From positions 1-64,000 of the forward strand of contig JAPDJW010000010.1 in the NCBI GenBank assembly GCA_029258885.1: DNA of 64,000 nt, given 5' to 3'. Below, piece by piece: positions 33,278-44,501 of the stretch (its first letter is position 1; every line of letters begins with the position of its first letter). Under the pieces are notes generated by a model, which saw nothing but the letters and a program-made list of their open reading frames with translations, had not been told where the DNA came from and did not search any database. The stretch is from Thermoproteota archaeon. Lineage in GTDB: Archaea > Thermoproteota > Thermoprotei > Thermofilales > B9-G17. Made by a program: the position numbers and the translations under genes.

Positions 33278-34756
33278 TTATTCGGGATATAGGATAGATA
33301 GCATCCACTCAACTTTAGGATATATTCTCCTTAAAACTTCTCTTGGAATAAATGCTAGAACTATATCGCTTAGTTCACTTTTGCTAATTACATTAGTTCT
33401 GGTGTATACTAGCACCGTAGCTACTAATATAGCTGATACCGAAATTACCCAGTGGACGTTAATAAGGGAAAAAATTAAGCCTAAGATCGTTGGAGTTGCT
33501 ATAATTACTAGAAGCTCTCTAAAATTAGCTTTAAACCCTACTTTATGGGCTATCATTATAGAGGCTATGAGCCCGGATAAAGATCCGATGGTATAGCTTA
33601 TAGCTGCTCCTAAACCCTTAAGTATAGGTGTAAACTGATAATATAGTATAATTCTCGGAATATTCTGAAATACGCCTATCAAAAATACGTACATATAGAT
33701 TCCGTAGGCATAAACTAACGTACTTATACCTGAGGAAAACGCAACTGGAAGTATTCCTAGGGCAAGCACAGTAAATATATCCTTAGCTTCCAGATACTCC
33801 CTACCTAGGATGCTGAGAGGAAGCCATGAATAAAGTATAGCTAAAACTGTTGCAGGAGCTGAAACAGCTAGAGATAGCTTTATCGTCTTCCACGCTAGCC
33901 TTTTTCTCCCATCCTTCATCCCGCTTAATAGTGGAAGCATTAATGCATTAAAACTAACGGGAATAGCAAGGACACCATTAACTATAGCGAAGACTGCATA
34001 ATAATGTCCCGTCTCTACGGCACCAATTTTACTAAACACCGTGAGAACGCCTAGCCAGTTGCCTATAGAGGTAATCACTTGAGGAAGCCAGAAGGCTATT
34101 CCAGCCTTAGCAGTTTCAATGAATGCACCACAGTCAAAGATAGGCTTTATCCTGATGAGTTTAAAAGAGTACATAAGCATTGAGACTAGAGATACGGTGT
34201 TTGCTATACATGTAGCGAGAATTACGCCTAGCCAACCATAATCAGCCTTAATTAGAGCTACTCCCAGAATAAGCCTTAGAATACTAGTAGCTAATGATAC
34301 TATGAATAGGATTTCCGTTTTAGCAAATACTATGAACACTGTATCGAAAGCTATGGATAATGTCAGAAACATCAATATACCTGCGTATATTAGTTGTTCC
34401 CCTGTCAATCTAAATAAAGGTATATTATTGATAGCCAATGCTACAAGAAGTGCTAGTAAGAGTGATCTTGTAGCTAAGGAATAATTAAACGCAGTTGAAA
34501 AGTATCTTGAAACCATGTTAATATCTCTTGATCCGAGGCCTATGCCCATGAATCGCCTAACTCCAGTAAATATTCCAAGCGATATTATTCCTGCAAGCAT
34601 AGCTGCTAGACCTGATATAGCACTCGCTATTCCAAGTATCTCAGATCCACCTATGATAGACACTATAACCCAGAATACAAAGCCTATCATCTGCCCTATT
34701 AAGAGACGAAGGTAAAGGAATGTACCACCTCTGACAATTTTCCTAAAGCTCATCAT
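33278..34756 (-). CDS. Oligosaccharide flippase (MOP/Wzx family)
   Basis: About 12-14 TM helices; G.YYA...I...V..IP.SFN.L.LP.LS pattern. Confidence 0.82.
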   Translation of the reverse strand: MMSFRKIVRGGTFLYLRLLIGQMIGFVFWVIVSIIGGSEILGIASAISGLAAMLAGIISLGIFTGVRRFMGIGLGSRDINMVSRYFSTAFNYSLATRSLLLALLVALAINNIPLFRLTGEQLIYAGILMFLTLSIAFDTVFIVFAKTEILFIVSLATSILRLILGVALIKADYGWLGVILATCIANTVSLVSMLMYSFKLIRIKPIFDCGAFIETAKAGIAFWLPQVITSIGNWLGVLTVFSKIGAVETGHYYAVFAIVNGVLAIPVSFNALMLPLLSGMKDGRKRLAWKTIKLSLAVSAPATVLAILYSWLPLSILGREYLEAKDIFTVLALGILPVAFSSGISTLVYAYGIYMYVFLIGVFQNIPRIILYYQFTPILKGLGAAISYTIGSLSGLIASIMIAHKVGFKANFRELLVIIATPTILGLIFSLINVHWVISVSAILVATVLVYTRTNVISKSELSDIVLAFIPREVLRRIYPKVEWMLSILYPE

Positions 34757-34923
34757 CCCACGGGCTTCTTTAGCTGAGCTTTAATAATTTATTTAATCAC
34801 TTAAATTATTAACGAACAGTAGCTCTATGATATGGAGTTAGCAACATAATAGTTCATCTATTTAGCTAAGTTTTTAAACACCCTAATTTAATAAGTATTA
34901 TACAGAGTGGCAAGGGATGATGT

Positions 34924-36273
34924 ATGAAGATTTCTATAAGAACACTTAAAATTGCTTCAGTAGCTATCGCAACCATTGGAATAATCGTCGCCTATCTCCT
35001 TGCAAGAACTACCTCTGCCCCGCTGATGTCCATAATTGAACTAAGGGGAAATTACGCCATAAACTATGCTACAATAAGAATTAGAGGAGTTGTTTCAGAT
35101 TATCCATACATCGATAACTCGACCGGCCGCCTCTACATCTCCTTCGAGGTAAATGATGGAACTGATACCATTAGCGTTAGAGTATACTCGCCTACATCGA
35201 TTAAGCTGGTAAATCTGGGTCTCCTACCCTTTTTAGGGGATGAGGTGGAGATAGAGGGTCAGGTTAGAGTTAAGGAGGACTACGTGTATATGGTTCTCCA
35301 GGATGTAAGGGGATTAAAAATACTTGGGACGCCGCAGTTCGAAGGAAACGTATCTTCGTTATCCATATGGGATAACTATAAATACTTAGGCGCTGAAGGC
35401 TATGTAAGCGGTTTAAGAACAGTTTCATCCGGATATCTATTCGATATAAAGACCTCTGGAGGGTCAATAACCGTTTTAGTCCCGTACGGTCTAATGTACG
35501 TTGAGCCGGAGCTATACCTCAACTTCACTAAGAATATAGCTGATGGAAGGAGGGTATACATTAGGGGAATAGTATACCTGTATAGGGGTACACAACCCGA
35601 ATTTGTCGTAAAGACGCTTAAGGATGTATTCTTCCTAAAGGAGAAGGGGGCAGTTACAGAGCTTCTGAAGCTCGGCGACTTTATATCAAATATAGGTAAA
35701 TATAAGGATAATATTGTCGGTGTTGAGGCGCGGCTAAACAGAATATTCTACCACAGCGATACGAGAAGCTATACCGTAGAGTTCACCGATCCCAGCAACC
35801 TCAATATTAAATTCAACATGAGCGTCTCATCATCCTCCATCCTATATAAATCGCTCAATGGACTCTACTCGCTTACAGGAACCCTTCTAAACCTATCAGT
35901 ATATGTATCGGGATCGCTGGCCGTTGATGTTAGGAAGATATCGGTCATAGAGTATCCGGTCAACAGTATGGAGGAGCTTAAGCAGGCTAAAGTCGATATA
36001 GGCGATATAGGCGAAGACGACAGAGGGGTAATATATGCGGTCGTTGGAACGGTTACGTCAGACCCCAGCATAGTTGGATCAAGCCTAAAGTTTAAGCTTA
36101 AGGACAATACGGGCGCGATAGACGTATTCATACCTGGAGGAAAATACATGAAGAATTGGGAGAGCCTAATAAGGAGCGGCGCAAAGCTGGTAGTAGTGGG
36201 ATACGTGGACATATACAGGGGCGCCCTAGAGATAGTCGTATACGATTTCGACGGTGTAGCGGAGGATCCCTAG
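34924..36273 (+). CDS. Membrane-anchored multi-OB-fold (nucleic-acid-binding type) protein
   Basis: N-terminal TM, then 3-4 OB-like repeats (IRGVV...FEVNDGTDTISVRVY...GDEVEIEGQV; KLKDNTGAIDVF...VVGYVDIYRGALEI); five NxS/T sequons. Confidence 0.75.
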   Translation: MKISIRTLKIASVAIATIGIIVAYLLARTTSAPLMSIIELRGNYAINYATIRIRGVVSDYPYIDNSTGRLYISFEVNDGTDTISVRVYSPTSIKLVNLGLLPFLGDEVEIEGQVRVKEDYVYMVLQDVRGLKILGTPQFEGNVSSLSIWDNYKYLGAEGYVSGLRTVSSGYLFDIKTSGGSITVLVPYGLMYVEPELYLNFTKNIADGRRVYIRGIVYLYRGTQPEFVVKTLKDVFFLKEKGAVTELLKLGDFISNIGKYKDNIVGVEARLNRIFYHSDTRSYTVEFTDPSNLNIKFNMSVSSSSILYKSLNGLYSLTGTLLNLSVYVSGSLAVDVRKISVIEYPVNSMEELKQAKVDIGDIGEDDRGVIYAVVGTVTSDPSIVGSSLKFKLKDNTGAIDVFIPGGKYMKNWESLIRSGAKLVVVGYVDIYRGALEIVVYDFDGVAEDP

Positions 36274-36283
36274 GTGATGGACC

Positions 36284-37600
36284 ATGATAGATTTCATAAC
36301 AGTCCTATACTACAGCGTCCTCGGGACAATAGTTGGAGTAGCATTATCCTGGCTGCCGGGCTTCCATATATACAACGTCATAGCGGTATTATTTATAGTA
36401 ATGGGCTTCGAATCCTTTATTCCAGCCGAGTTCATACCATTCTTCATGTTAAGTGCGATAATAGCCTTCTCCTTCGTAAACCTCCTACCAGCAATATTCC
36501 TAAGCGTAGCAGACGACACCCTAATATTCCTCCTATTCCCGTCCCAAAGAGCCCTACTGCTGGGAAAGGGATATAGGGCGATGCTTCTATCCCTACTAGG
36601 TGCGCTTGGAGGCGCTATGCTACTCTTCGCTTTAAGCCCAGTATTGGCGATAATACTCCCCATAGTCTACAACCTAACCTCAAACTACATACACGTATTC
36701 ATAGCAGCACTAATACTCTTCATGTTCATGTCTGAGTGGCACAGATACGGGGAGAAGGTGGGTAGCCCACTTTCAAGGCTACTTGATGCGTGGAAGCAAT
36801 CCTTCGCCGGACTATTCGTATTCTTCGCCTCGGGAATACTCGGATTCATAGCTATGCGTAGACCCATAGTACCCCCCGATAGAGCATACCTAAACCTCAT
36901 GCCCCTCTTCATAGGAGCATTCGGCATGGCATGGGTAGTATTCAACCTAATATCAAACGTACAGATACCCAAGCAGGAAATAATGGATAAGGTGGAGATC
37001 AGCCTACCAAATTACCTGAGGGGGCTTGTATCCGGAGTATTCGGGGGAATAATAGCAGCTCTATATCCTCTCATAACTGGAGGAATGGGGGCACTAGTTG
37101 CAGGCCACCTAGTCAATCCAACCAGTGAGGACGAATTCCTGATATCTCAGGGCGCCAATAGAGTAGTGTACTATGTTGGAGCATACTTCCTCCTATTCAT
37201 GCCAACCTTCAGAATTATAAGGGGGACTGGAGCCTGGATAACCGCTGGAATATACATACCAAAGCTCTATGAGGAGTACGTTTTAGCGTTAGGTATACTC
37301 CTATTTGTATCCGGAATATCGTTCCTAGCAACCCTGCTAATAGGTAGAGTGTACGTGAGCCTAGTGACTAGGATAAGCTACAAGAAGCTCTCCCTCATAA
37401 CTATGGCGATGCTAGTGATAATAACCTACGTAGGAACGGGATTAATGGGTATATTCTACATGACTATAGCCACTTTCCTAGGACTAGTAGCTGGCCTATA
37501 CAATACCAGGAGGTCGTATCCACTCGGCCTCCTCCTATTTCCAGTACTCCTAAGCATGACCGGGACAGCGGATATACTGTGTGAAATACTCGGAATATAG
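36284..37600 (+). CDS. TctA-family (tripartite tricarboxylate transporter-like) permease
   Basis: LPGFHIYN, LPAIFLSV.DD...LFP.Q..LL.GKG.RA.LLS..G; about 12 TM helices. Confidence 0.78.
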   Translation: MIDFITVLYYSVLGTIVGVALSWLPGFHIYNVIAVLFIVMGFESFIPAEFIPFFMLSAIIAFSFVNLLPAIFLSVADDTLIFLLFPSQRALLLGKGYRAMLLSLLGALGGAMLLFALSPVLAIILPIVYNLTSNYIHVFIAALILFMFMSEWHRYGEKVGSPLSRLLDAWKQSFAGLFVFFASGILGFIAMRRPIVPPDRAYLNLMPLFIGAFGMAWVVFNLISNVQIPKQEIMDKVEISLPNYLRGLVSGVFGGIIAALYPLITGGMGALVAGHLVNPTSEDEFLISQGANRVVYYVGAYFLLFMPTFRIIRGTGAWITAGIYIPKLYEEYVLALGILLFVSGISFLATLLIGRVYVSLVTRISYKKLSLITMAMLVIITYVGTGLMGIFYMTIATFLGLVAGLYNTRRSYPLGLLLFPVLLSMTGTADILCEILGI

Positions 37601-37608
37601 GTGGTTAA

Positions 37609-38643
37609 ATGAGGGGCTTCACCCACTTCCTCTCCGGCCTATCTATAGCAACGTTCTTTAAAAGCCTACTGAAGGATGCATTAAACGGAGGACTATGGAT
37701 GCTCGTACCGGCTGCATTCGCCTACCTTCCCGACTTCCTGGACTTCAAGATATACAAGCACTTCGAGAAGTGGGACTACATAATTAAGCCGAAATATGAC
37801 GACATGAATCCCCAGGAGATAGCTGAAACAATAGCTAAGGCGATAGATGAAGCATACGAGACAGGCAAGGACGTTAGGTTAAAGTGTTTTACAGCTAGAG
37901 CACCCGGAGACGTATACAGAAAATACAGCGTAAGGTTTAGGTCGGATAAGAATGAGATAGAGGTAGTTGTAGGCCCACTCGTTACTCCATCGGGCACAGA
38001 GGTGGAGGGCACAGAGCCTCCACCCGATAAAAGGGTGGGAATAGCTAAAACTAAGCACCCGTTTTCTAAAAAGTATCCCAGGCCATTCGAGGTCAAGGGC
38101 TTCCATGGACCATCCTACCAGTTCATTAGGGAGGGCGATGTTGTTGAAGTAAACTTCCTCCCATGGCATAGGGAGTGGGCTCACAGCTTCATAACTGGAA
38201 TAATATTCGGTGCAGTACTATACCTAATAACAGCTTTCGTCATAAGGCTGGATTTTGCGCTTGATTTAACTATAGCATCTATACTCGGCTTCTGGGCTCA
38301 TATAATAGAGGATCACATGGGCATGATGGGCGGAAACCTATTCTGGCCGATAACTAGGAAGCGTACGCCTGGCTTCGCCTTGAGCGAGTCAGGCTCAATG
38401 TTCATGAACATGGGTACGGCATGGTTCTTCATAACATTAATGCTCTACAATTTCAATCAGGCGGCAACAATAAAGTACATACCGCTAGACCCTATGAGAT
38501 ACTACGTAATCGTAACGATACTGCCAACGGCAATACTCTACGCTATAGGCGTAATCTACCATCGAGAGGTTGTATTAAAGAAGTGGGCTGAAGCAGAGCA
38601 GAGGGAGGAAATAGAGGAGGTCTCGGAGTTCAGGGAAGGATAG
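37609..38643 (+). CDS. Membrane metal-dependent hydrolase (YdjM/DUF457-like) with large soluble insertion
   Basis: MRGFTH, LPDFLD, HREWAHS, HIIED, LFWP. Confidence 0.82.
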   Translation: MRGFTHFLSGLSIATFFKSLLKDALNGGLWMLVPAAFAYLPDFLDFKIYKHFEKWDYIIKPKYDDMNPQEIAETIAKAIDEAYETGKDVRLKCFTARAPGDVYRKYSVRFRSDKNEIEVVVGPLVTPSGTEVEGTEPPPDKRVGIAKTKHPFSKKYPRPFEVKGFHGPSYQFIREGDVVEVNFLPWHREWAHSFITGIIFGAVLYLITAFVIRLDFALDLTIASILGFWAHIIEDHMGMMGGNLFWPITRKRTPGFALSESGSMFMNMGTAWFFITLMLYNFNQAATIKYIPLDPMRYYVIVTILPTAILYAIGVIYHREVVLKKWAEAEQREEIEEVSEFREG

Positions 38644-41369: not shown

Positions 41370-44300
41370 TTGATGAGGATTCAGGATACAGGGGAAATCC
41401 TCCGTAAGCTTGGGTATGATTACTATACATGTACTGAGCCTGAGGTTAAGCCTGAGTTAGTTGATGTAAGGTTTATTGATATATTGCCTGAGCTTGCCGA
41501 GGGTTCCGGGCACTCCAGGTTTGTATCTGGGAAGAAGCTGTATAAGCATCAGTATGAGGCATTTAAACACCTGAGCAATGGATACAATATCGTGCTTAAA
41601 TCCGGTACGGGTTCAGGCAAGACTGAGGCATGGCTTCTATACGTTTTCAAATATAGGGTTCCGGCTCTAGCGGTTTATCCAACTCTAGCCCTAGCTAATG
41701 ATCAGATTAAAAGGATTAAGGATTACTGTCAGACTCTAGGATATAGGGTTGAGCAGATCGACGCTAAAACGAAGGAGGCTCTATGGAGGAGCGGATTGAG
41801 GACGGGCGATATAAGGAGGAAGCTTAGGGACGCAGATATAGTGATAACTAACCCAGCCTTCCTAATGATGGAGCTTAAAAGGTGGGCTATGAACCCTAGA
41901 AACATGCTCCTAGACGCCTTTCTAGGCAAGGTAAAGCTGATAGTATTCGATGAATTCGACTTCTACGGGCCGAGGGAGATAGCTCTACTTATGGCCATGA
42001 TGTCCATATTAAGGGAGATCTCGGAGTCGAACTTCCAGATAGCCGTGATGACGGCCACGTTAGGCAATCCAGAGGAGCTTGCAGAGTATCTTAAATCAGT
42101 TAACGATAGGGATACTGCTATAGTTGAGGGTAGGCCATTTAAAGTTCAGAATAGAACATACATAGTCTTAGGCAAAAACCTCCAGGCCGTATGGAGGCAT
42201 ATATCCAAGCATAGGGACGCCATATTAAGGGGGAACGTTGGAGAAGACGTTAAAAGGGCGCTTGAGGACTACGAGCACTTCAAAAACAACGTATTTAAGG
42301 TACTTGAAGTCGCTGAAGCCCTAGGTTTAGACGTGCCTAAAATAGAGTTTGACATCAGCGAAATACTCTCGAAATATGTTGAAGACGATGGAGTAACCCT
42401 AGTATTCACGAGGAGCATAGCTACGGCTGAACAGTATGCAAGGAGGCTTAAGTCGACGATAGGGGATAAAGGCGAGCTAGTGGCCTCGCATCATCACCTT
42501 ATCTCTAAGGCCTTTAGGGAGGAGATAGAGCGTAAGGCTAGAGCAGGGGAGATGAAGGTAATATTCTCTCCGAGAACTCTCTCACAGGGGATAGATATAG
42601 GAACAATCATCAGGATAGTACATTTAGGATTGCCTGAGGACGTAAGGGAGTTTCACCAGAGGGAGGGCAGGAAGGGTAGAAGGGAGGAAATACCGTTTAC
42701 CGAATCTATAATAATACCGTTCTCCAAGTGGGATAGGGAGCTACTATCTAGGGGACTGGATGCATTCATAGAATGGCTTAACCTACCGCTAGAACACGTC
42801 ATAGTGAACACAGACAATAAATACATGATGCTGTTTAAGGCGCTATTCCACGTAGTTTCCTCGAGACACAGCAGGAGAGGAGTAAGCGAGGAGGAGTACA
42901 AGTTTCTAAAGTCGCTAGGGCTCGTGGAGGGCCCATACCTCTCAAGTAGGGGGAAGAGGACCTGGATAAACATGAACTTCTACGAATATTCGCCGCCATA
43001 CGGTATCAAGAGGGTAAGAATAAGGGCTGGCGAGGAGGAGTACCTAGAGGATATCTCACACTGCGATCTAGTTGAAAAGTTTCAGATAGGATGCTTCGAC
43101 TACACTTCAGATTCCATAGTTACTAGACATAGACTAGGCGGGAGAAGCGGTAGAACCGTGATAGCTGTAGAGGTTGAGCCAATATCGTACGGATTAATAT
43201 GGAAACATGAGGCACTGGCTGAGGCGTTCGGGGAATACGAGAAGATAAAGCGTAAATGGGGTGAAGAGCCTTCAATACTATCGGACTACAACCTGGGTAG
43301 GCTGTATAGTGAAGTTTTATGTACAGTTAGACCTCCTACCTCCGGCTTCGGGAAGCTATACAAGTTCCCCTCAAGGGTAACGTGGTACGTGGTTGAGCGT
43401 AAGAGCAGAATAGTTAGGGCGGATAGCAGAACCATAGCCTATAGGGAGAGGAGGCCCATAGAGGTTCCAACGCCGACATACGGGATGTACACCGATTATA
43501 CCTATGGCATTACTATGGAGCTGAGCCCGGATGAGGATTTAACGTGGCTTAGAATTGGGCTTGCATATCTCATGGTAATTCTCAGGAGGGTGTACAACAT
43601 ACCTCTGGAGACGATAATGTATGACGTAGTTAAGATAGGTGAAATGAAGCTAATGAATCTACATGAGCCGGAGAGCGCTGGACTACTTGAGAAGATTGAC
43701 TGGAGCGAGGTAGCTAGAGTTGTTGAGAAATATGAGCCAACGCCACTGGATGAAATCCTCCTTCAGGCCGCCGACGATATAGCTCACCTAGATTTCGTAG
43801 ATTTCGGCTTAAGGTGGGATATAGCGAAGAAGTTTACGTTAAGAGCATTAAACTACCTTATTCTAAGGCAGAAGATAGCCGTAAAGGTTAAGGATAAGGT
43901 GGTGTATCTCCCAAAGCCGTCTAAAGCCCTAAAGGTTTTCTCGATAGATGCTATAAGCCTACCAGTATATGAGGAGGGAAACGTAGCCATCTACGTGCTC
44001 GGAGTATTCGATGGAGACCAGGAAGTCGTTAGGAGCGGATTAAAGGAGTGGTATATTATCAGCAAGGATAGGGAGGCTGTTGAGAGGAAAATAATGGATC
44101 TAATAAACGAGGACTTTAAAGCTATAGTATTCAACTATTCTGGCTTCATTAACGCCCTTAATTCTATGGGGCTGAAGCACCTGCTAATAACGTTCGAGGG
44201 ATTAAGAAGCATGAATAAGGTAGTGGATCTCCAGGAGCCAGCCGTTAAATACTTCGGTAGCGATCAGGTGGCGCTTGAAACCATAGGATCAGCACTAGGT

Positions 44301-44501
44301 GTAGTTAAGGAAGCTTATCTTACAGATTTAAAACTCTACTACGATGAATTCCTATCTAAAATTAAGGGACTACCCTACAGCAGATGGTGGAACTACTCTA
44401 AGCTACTTAAAAAGTATGCAGAGAAACACCTAGCTAACAGGTTAAGGACATTATACATACTATATCTATTACTTAGGGAAGAGAAAGTTTTACATACATA
44501 A
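41370..44501 (+). CDS. SF2 DEAD/DEAH helicase (Hrq1/MrfA/SftH-like) with DUF1998-like region and degenerate C-terminal RNase H-like domain
   Basis: Motifs GTGSGKT, YPTLALANDQ, DEFD, TATL, VFTRS, QGIDIG, QREGRKGRR; extended C-terminus. Confidence 0.85.
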   Translation: MMRIQDTGEILRKLGYDYYTCTEPEVKPELVDVRFIDILPELAEGSGHSRFVSGKKLYKHQYEAFKHLSNGYNIVLKSGTGSGKTEAWLLYVFKYRVPALAVYPTLALANDQIKRIKDYCQTLGYRVEQIDAKTKEALWRSGLRTGDIRRKLRDADIVITNPAFLMMELKRWAMNPRNMLLDAFLGKVKLIVFDEFDFYGPREIALLMAMMSILREISESNFQIAVMTATLGNPEELAEYLKSVNDRDTAIVEGRPFKVQNRTYIVLGKNLQAVWRHISKHRDAILRGNVGEDVKRALEDYEHFKNNVFKVLEVAEALGLDVPKIEFDISEILSKYVEDDGVTLVFTRSIATAEQYARRLKSTIGDKGELVASHHHLISKAFREEIERKARAGEMKVIFSPRTLSQGIDIGTIIRIVHLGLPEDVREFHQREGRKGRREEIPFTESIIIPFSKWDRELLSRGLDAFIEWLNLPLEHVIVNTDNKYMMLFKALFHVVSSRHSRRGVSEEEYKFLKSLGLVEGPYLSSRGKRTWINMNFYEYSPPYGIKRVRIRAGEEEYLEDISHCDLVEKFQIGCFDYTSDSIVTRHRLGGRSGRTVIAVEVEPISYGLIWKHEALAEAFGEYEKIKRKWGEEPSILSDYNLGRLYSEVLCTVRPPTSGFGKLYKFPSRVTWYVVERKSRIVRADSRTIAYRERRPIEVPTPTYGMYTDYTYGITMELSPDEDLTWLRIGLAYLMVILRRVYNIPLETIMYDVVKIGEMKLMNLHEPESAGLLEKIDWSEVARVVEKYEPTPLDEILLQAADDIAHLDFVDFGLRWDIAKKFTLRALNYLILRQKIAVKVKDKVVYLPKPSKALKVFSIDAISLPVYEEGNVAIYVLGVFDGDQEVVRSGLKEWYIISKDREAVERKIMDLINEDFKAIVFNYSGFINALNSMGLKHLLITFEGLRSMNKVVDLQEPAVKYFGSDQVALETIGSALGVVKEAYLTDLKLYYDEFLSKIKGLPYSRWWNYSKLLKKYAEKHLANRLRTLYILYLLLREEKVLHT

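Follow-up and report, generated by a model that had tools for sequence, protein, structure and literature searches.

An OB-fold protein, a TctA-like permease and a YdjM-like membrane enzyme in one conserved three-gene cassette: a candidate nucleic-acid uptake system of archaea and bacteria

Among the first 64,000 nucleotides of contig JAPDJW010000010.1 (assembly GCA_029258885.1, a heat-loving Thermoproteota archaeon of the order Thermofilales), the stretch that was analysed as a whole and is called the window in what follows, three adjacent genes encode a protein that is anchored at its N-terminus and has four OB folds, a divergent permease of the TctA family and a YdjM-like membrane protein that carries a soluble insertion. 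We propose, by analogy, that this trio may form a single membrane machine for nucleic-acid uptake, a variant on the system of OB-fold and TctA-like proteins on which transformation of methanogens depends, and would call the chances of this proposal evenly balanced. In its favour, the OB-fold and permease genes belong to the same two Pfam families as the transformation pair, with the same architecture and gene order, and the trio moves as a unit between unrelated genomic contexts. The core of the idea is already published. What is new here is a distinct lineage of these loci, hereafter type 1, with a YdjM-like partner that is predicted to face inward.

The only genetic handle on the passage of DNA across the archaeal membrane is the methanogen pair. 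In a natural-transformation screen of transposon mutants of Methanococcus maripaludis JJ (Fonseca et al., 2023; PMC10133366), it consists of two adjacent genes, MMJJ_13020, for a protein with an OB fold and one transmembrane helix, and MMJJ_13030, for a TctA-like protein whose transmembrane helices number 11. In-frame deletion of either gene abolishes transformation and complementation restores it; deletion of the TctA-like gene of Methanoculleus thermophilus likewise abolishes natural transformation, and the TctA-like protein was proposed there as the archaeal DNA transporter (PMC10133366). As the pair is essential for transformation, the notion of uptake, which a first-pass annotation of the window had put forward from the letters of the DNA, was already in the literature and is not new; our literature search found no later paper on the pair. 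In the window, as in the methanogen, the gene for an N-anchored PF01336 protein immediately precedes that for a PF01970 permease, TctB and TctC are missing and the host is an archaeon without ComEC. It is these genetics that make uptake of nucleic acid, by analogy, the best-supported function that the trio might have.

The trio lies on the + strand within 34924-38643, as three open reading frames of 449, 438 and 344 residues. Gene 1 occupies 34924..36273, gene 2 36284..37600 and gene 3 37609..38643, with intergenic gaps of 10 and 8 nucleotides, which is how the first-pass annotation had read it when it spoke of an operon with gaps of 8 to 10 nucleotides. Gene 1 has a single hydrophobic helix at residues 8-26, with K2, R6 and K9 placed as basic residues before it, again as first described. 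It matches the PF01336 OB fold (E 7e-16) in three stretches, as well as PF13742 (E 2e-5). The AlphaFold2 model, derived from a 36-sequence alignment (pLDDT 93.4, pTM 0.76), begins with the transmembrane helix (about residues 5-29) and goes on with four OB folds (about residues 45-135, 139-237, 244-343 and 365-447), at the upper end of the three or four previously counted. Compared with the PDB by Foldseek, the model finds as best matches tandem-OB DNA binders throughout, p204 HIN first (3e-15), with Teb1, LEF-3, RADX, RPA, CST and the Oxytricha telomere protein among the other top ones. Such matches are to be expected for any OB array and are no proof of what gene 1 binds; the folds themselves are of the nucleic-acid-binding type, and nucleic acid is a putative ligand.

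On which side of the membrane this array resides is a matter for glycosylation signals and charges. Gene 1, which is without cysteine, holds five N-x-S/T sequons (N65, N142, N200, N298 and N323). They are real, as claimed, but as an argument they are weak when taken alone, since 2.8 would be expected from composition and the excess in this one protein is not significant. The informative signal is the family-wide count. The OB ectodomains of 13 archaeal homologues contain 80 sequons where 37.8 are expected, whereas those of 23 bacterial homologues contain 23 for 28.7 expected, that is, no excess. Because of this contrast between archaea and bacteria, together with the positive charges that precede the helix, the archaeal OB array is most likely extracellular and N-glycosylated. 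The location outside the cell that had been supposed from the start is thus what the family would predict.

The product of gene 2 matches the PF01970 TctA profile over its full length (positions 1-419 of 423; E 3e-31), with a score of 109 bits for a cut-off of 28.9 that is nevertheless low for the TctA family and marks a divergent branch; no NCBIfam model matches. A crude hydropathy scan gives 11 segments, so that the twelve or so membrane segments once ascribed to it were approximately right. The protein is 44-50% identical to its Desulfurococcales, Geoarchaeota and Thermococcus counterparts and 33-41% identical to the bacterial ones, and an alignment of 10 archaeal and bacterial permeases shows 60 invariant positions. 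In the family tree the terminal branch of the window protein is unusually long (1.07, for a median of 0.11), with the family-invariant residues all retained. Profile searches of the PDB returned no relative of the TctA-like family, and none of the YdjM-like family either.

What usually goes with a TctA protein is absent. In the genome, which is 99.9% complete and was searched for TctA, TctB, TctC and ComEC domains, there is no match to TctB (PF07331; controls positive in Escherichia coli, C. glutamicum and H. volcanii) and none to TctC (PF03401; controls positive in four genomes), nor is there a second TctA copy elsewhere. The missing partners, first noted within the window, are therefore missing from the whole genome. 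Gene 2 resembles the permease of TctABC, the citrate transporter of Salmonella within the TTT (tripartite tricarboxylate transporter) family, in its full-length membership of the Pfam TctA family; it differs in lacking TctB and the periplasmic TctC, in its OB-fold and YdjM-like partners and in its low profile score.

Gene 3 matches PF04307 (YdjM) with 48.6 bits (cut-off 29), and across 35 archaeal and bacterial homologues H6, P41, D42, D45, K47, W186, H187, H192, H231 and D235 are invariant, with the motifs H187-R-x-x-x-H192-S, H231-x-x-x-D235 and G-x-M-G kept throughout; the YdjM/DUF457 assignment, with its H, D, HRxxxHS and HxxxD signature, was thus well founded. The AlphaFold2 model (pLDDT 89.7, pTM 0.85) has six membrane helices. 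Between the first conserved residues and W186, residues 48-185 (37750..38163, delimited on the alignment of the 35 homologues and the modelled secondary structure) form a soluble insertion of 138 residues, close to the 130 or so first estimated, which is found in every member of the aligned subfamily and is modelled as one helix and a beta-rich domain of about ten strands. E. coli proteins of the YdjM/YbcI type of DUF457 are inner-membrane proteins of about 170-200 residues. Gene 3 shares with them the Pfam family and the conserved His/Asp positions, and departs from them by its soluble domain (about 240-260 residues with an OB fold in relatives) and by an acidic C-terminal tail. The model has no Foldseek match at E<=0.001, a VIA-wide fold search retrieved generic helical hairpins only (Z<8), and the structural neighbours of the insertion in the ESM Atlas are members of its own family. 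Proteins with the insertion make up a small subfamily that stands well apart: a search of 1.84 billion representatives gives 252 clusters at E<=1e-3. Our search of the literature found no characterised member of YdjM/DUF457. Metal-dependent hydrolase activity is a prediction even for the founding members of the family. A role for DUF457 as a membrane pore was considered and rejected, as the apparent match in the literature concerned DUF4579. Two ordinary short YdjM-family genes, with open frames of 170-182 residues, exist elsewhere in the same genome (C10:22643-23116 and C1:530057-530506).

In the gene 3 model the insertion starts and ends on the side of the membrane where the metal-ligand residues lie, and the loop that follows helix 4 and the C-terminal tail are on that side too. 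Averaged over the 35 sequences, there are 13.1 membrane-flanking Lys and Arg residues on this side and 2.4 on the opposite one, which by the positive-inside rule leads us to predict that the metal site and the insertion face the cytoplasm; consistent with this, the archaeal insertions show no enrichment in sequons (4, with 4.9 expected). The proteins of Thermococcus and of most Desulfurococcales are longer (440-466 residues), with about 100 additional residues inside the insertion, and this extra module scores as a PF01336 OB fold (28.1 and 29.3 bits, cut-off 27); it is absent from the window and Geoarchaeota proteins. With this module the long forms link the predicted hydrolase to a ligand of the kind that gene 1 would bind. 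All YdjM-like proteins of the subfamily also end in a strongly acidic tail (38560-38643 in the window), whose last residues are GG[LI] in most archaea and which reads DDADDEW... in many bacteria; the tail recalls the acidic partner-binding tails of single-strand-binding proteins.

The three genes are linked well beyond what chance would give. The 86 loci that were collected by way of the TctA-like gene have an OB homologue immediately upstream in 71 cases and a YdjM-like homologue immediately downstream in 55, the misses being mostly contig ends; WOR-3 and most Anaerolineae have the OB/TctA-like pair only. Order and strand are shared across dozens of loci from two domains of life, where neighbouring genes overlap or are separated by a few bases. 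When species-representative genomes were scanned with the permease alignment, 80 loci were returned. Their archaeal carriers are Desulfurococcales, one Geoarchaeota metagenome-assembled genome (MAG) and Thermococcus; the bacterial ones are labelled WOR-3/Hydrothermales, Chloroflexota, Verrucomicrobiota, Kiritimatiellota, Lentisphaerota, Muiribacteriota, Spirochaetota, Auribacterota and Chlamydiota, with one proteobacterial MAG. Conservation of the trio among archaea, Thermococcales in particular, had been named as a check on the uptake idea, and the trio does recur in order in these archaea and in about ten bacterial phyla. Closer to the window, gene 1 is present in 3 of 31 genomes of the same order, and these three also have genes 2 and 3, next to it and in unchanged order. 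All six Thermoproteota genomes with any gene of the trio carry all three, and in the five other carriers of the phylum the trio stands together without any of the flanking genes of the window, in surroundings that differ each time. When all flanking ORFs were clustered, no fourth recurrent family emerged; what came up were antisense shadow ORFs and, in Chloroflexota, histidine kinases of a generic sort. In a permease tree (a quick tree, with SH-aLRT support only), the archaeal sequences form one group beside thermophilic WOR-3 bacteria, Thermococcus is nested among Desulfurococcales, and the window copy is on a long branch beside that of Geoarchaeota. These comparisons would suggest a cassette of three genes that is complete in itself and laterally mobile. 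A search of plasmids gave two distant cyanobacterial TctA-like genes only, with uninformative neighbours. One genome of the same order (G009) displays a local variation: a 253-residue gene on the opposite strand (L103:13334-14095, -) separates the TctA-like from the YdjM-like gene.

How far the methanogen result applies to the window depends on a split within the permeases. In the class that contains Thermococcus, 66 of 81 genomes have a TctA-like gene, of two kinds. Type 1, 45-48% identical to the window protein and about 445 residues long, is present in 21 of the 81; type 2, 24-30% identical and of 369-404 residues, is found in most genomes, often beside type 1. A fully supported long branch separates the two in the permease tree. 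Ten type 2 loci were inspected: in seven the gene just before the permease codes for an N-anchored protein recognised by the OB profile, in two such a gene lies slightly further upstream, the remaining locus (L094) has none, and no YdjM-like gene occurs within 5 kb in any of the ten. Scored directly against PF01336, one type 2 OB protein reaches 63 bits and those of Thermococcus about 20. The OB plus TctA-like pairs thus fall into two paralogous lineages, and the YdjM-like gene belongs to that of the window only. To which of them the methanogen pair belongs can be judged from a published complementation primer, which gives the last 8 residues of MMJJ_13030 (...TILYFLKI): they resemble the ends of type 2 (PVILYYLL, PVLLTYL) and differ from the extended type 1 end (...LLSMTGTADILCEILGI), with the reservation that 8 residues only are compared. 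The window permease, at about 440 residues with an extended C-terminus and an inserted YdjM-like gene next to it, is type 1, while the methanogen one looks like the shorter type 2, from which the YdjM partner is absent. The published genetics would then probably concern a sister lineage, so that the trio inherits its supposed function by family and architecture, and not by orthology. The split is also a warning against uncritical transfer of the methanogen result to every archaeal TctA-like gene.

Both lineages have features of their own in Thermococcus and its relatives. T. onnurineus and T. gammatolerans are among the Thermococcus species with type 1. In type 1 loci of Thermococcus the main OB protein is much longer than in the window (640-990 residues, against 449), and a second OB-fold protein of about 470 residues is encoded just upstream of it (L014:2489-3919, -; L026:2557-3963; L033:2528-3934). 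The type 2 pair adjoins a gene for the large subunit of DNA primase (PF04104), or lies within about 3 kb of one, in 5 of the 10 loci (L096:8343-9575, L098:6063-7607, L099:3384-4763, L100 and L101, all from the Thermococci class), drawn from at least two divergent groups, and genes for KaiC-like ATPases stand upstream of the pair in Thermococcus.

A mechanism can be sketched from these elements. The N-terminal helix of gene 1 would tether its four OB folds, glycosylated, to the outer face of the membrane, where extracellular DNA may be bound, probably in single-stranded form. The TctA-like protein, in the absence of TctB and TctC, might provide the membrane path or the energy coupling, a role for which the support is the genetics on the related pair. 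Beside the permease, the YdjM-like protein would present its His/Asp metal site, soluble domain and acidic tail on the cytoplasmic face, there to receive, cut or trim the incoming strand; in Thermococcus and most Desulfurococcales its soluble domain could bring an OB fold of its own to the hand-over. That the OB array replaces the solute receptor and that the permease serves as a pore for DNA are inferences, as are the ligand, the direction of transport and the chemistry. Processing of the import, which formed part of the initial idea without a side of the membrane being given, is predicted to happen inside if it happens at all.

This arrangement invites comparison with ComEC, which joins an N-terminal OB/DUF4131 domain, a competence channel domain and a metallo-beta-lactamase nuclease. 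The nuclease domain of ComEC works outside the cell. The trio would follow the same logic, split over three proteins, with OB folds that face outward, a polytopic part in the membrane and a predicted hydrolase that depends on metal, but its membrane part has the TctA fold, its hydrolase is of the DUF457 and not of the beta-lactamase type, and the hydrolase site is predicted to be cytoplasmic. DUF4131 (PF13567) has no match in gene 1 of the window; in a Thermococcus OB relative it scores 20.5 bits, below the cut-off of 31.6, and it is among the precomputed domains that the database gives for two OB relatives. A route independent of ComEC, as was first suggested, agrees with the absence of the competence domain (PF03772) from the genome (controls positive in 10 bacteria), but two of the three trio-bearing bacterial genomes tested have ComEC too. 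Since the two coexist in some bacteria, the trio is not simply a substitute for ComEC. With more doubt than confidence, the proposal may be extended to a ComEC-independent importer of nucleic acids common to archaea and about ten bacterial phyla, in which OB folds capture, a TctA fold conducts and DUF457 processes inside.

Several facts weigh against uptake of nucleic acid, ComEC coexistence being one. The genetics concern a related pair only, probably the type 2 paralogue that has no YdjM partner, and the present lineage is known from sequence; moreover, the transformation defect in the methanogen could be indirect. Members of the TctA family are secondary transporters of small carboxylates, which does not imply the passage of a polymer, and the cassette encodes neither ATPase nor translocase. 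Likeness among OB folds is unspecific, and the multi-OB structures of the PDB are, as it happens, mostly DNA binders. Finally, the cassette is rare in the phylum: the permease occurs in 5 of 301 sampled Thermoproteota genomes, representing 4 of 129 genera.

Some of these facts fit a system for small solutes. The TctA-like protein could be a secondary transporter of a small anion, such as nucleotides, short oligonucleotides, phosphoesters or carboxylates, with the OB array as a surface module that binds or concentrates the solute in place of TctC and the cytoplasm-facing YdjM-like enzyme hydrolysing what has come in. The full-length PF01970 match agrees with this, as do the predicted cytoplasmic metal site, which suits hydrolysis after import, the lack of an encoded motor and the presence of ComEC beside the trio in two bacteria. 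Carriage of carboxylates, as in the TctABC citrate transporter, is besides the only function biochemically known in the TctA family (PMC10133366). We nevertheless consider this explanation unlikely: TctB and TctC are absent from the genome, the permease is divergent (109 bits) and escapes every NCBIfam transporter model, four to nine tandem OB folds make an odd receptor for a small solute, and the methanogen genetics, done on the related pair, speak for uptake of DNA of kilobase length.

A role at the cell surface is less probable still. OB folds can bind ligands that are not nucleic acids. The trio might build, anchor or maintain a surface component, such as type IV-like pili or the S-layer, with the YdjM-like protein acting on a substrate that is linked to a lipid or belongs to the membrane; the effect on methanogen transformation would then be indirect. 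The YdjM family has no known substrate, its site is placed at the membrane surface, and the methanogen screen also recovered many genes of surface biogenesis, among them genes for pili, for an archaeosortase and for an M50 peptidase (PMC10133366). Against this, the OB domains match nucleic-acid-binding families specifically, the trio is common to archaea and to bacteria of many phyla with dissimilar envelopes, and genes of envelope biogenesis do not accompany it in any consistent way. As to the three genes being unrelated neighbours brought together by chance, the order and strand kept in dozens of loci from two domains and the six-out-of-six co-occurrence in Thermoproteota refute it, and its probability is practically nil.

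If uptake of nucleic acid, with DUF457 processing inside, were the correct reading, DUF457/YdjM would receive its first function and a missing cytoplasmic-side component of archaeal competence would have a name. Gene content could then serve to predict which uncultured hyperthermophiles are competent or scavenge DNA. Independently of this, the type 1 locus is a distinct branch, with a third conserved membrane enzyme, that exists in many bacteria as well.

In the window, the trio has the signals that one would infer for a usual archaeal operon. A TATA-box-like element, tttaataa (34887..34894, +), read from the sequence about 30 nucleotides 5' of the ATG of gene 1, is a putative promoter that would give this gene a very short leader. 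Shine-Dalgarno-like motifs, which are typical for internal genes of archaeal operons, precede the other two: GGTGAT (36273..36278, +), 5 nucleotides ahead of the ATG of gene 2 and overlapping the stop codon of gene 1, and GGTGGT (37600..37605, +), 3 nucleotides ahead of that of gene 3. The stop of gene 3 abuts the stop of a convergent gene for a GT2 glycosyltransferase. Divergent from gene 1 is an ORF of 492 residues (33278-34756, -) without Pfam match, and just downstream of the trio come a type I phosphodiesterase/nucleotide pyrophosphatase of the NPP type (PF01663; 39774-41228, +) and a DEAD/DEAH helicase of 1043 residues (41370-44501, +). These three were considered as partners of the trio and set aside, as none of them stands beside it in the five other genomes of the phylum.

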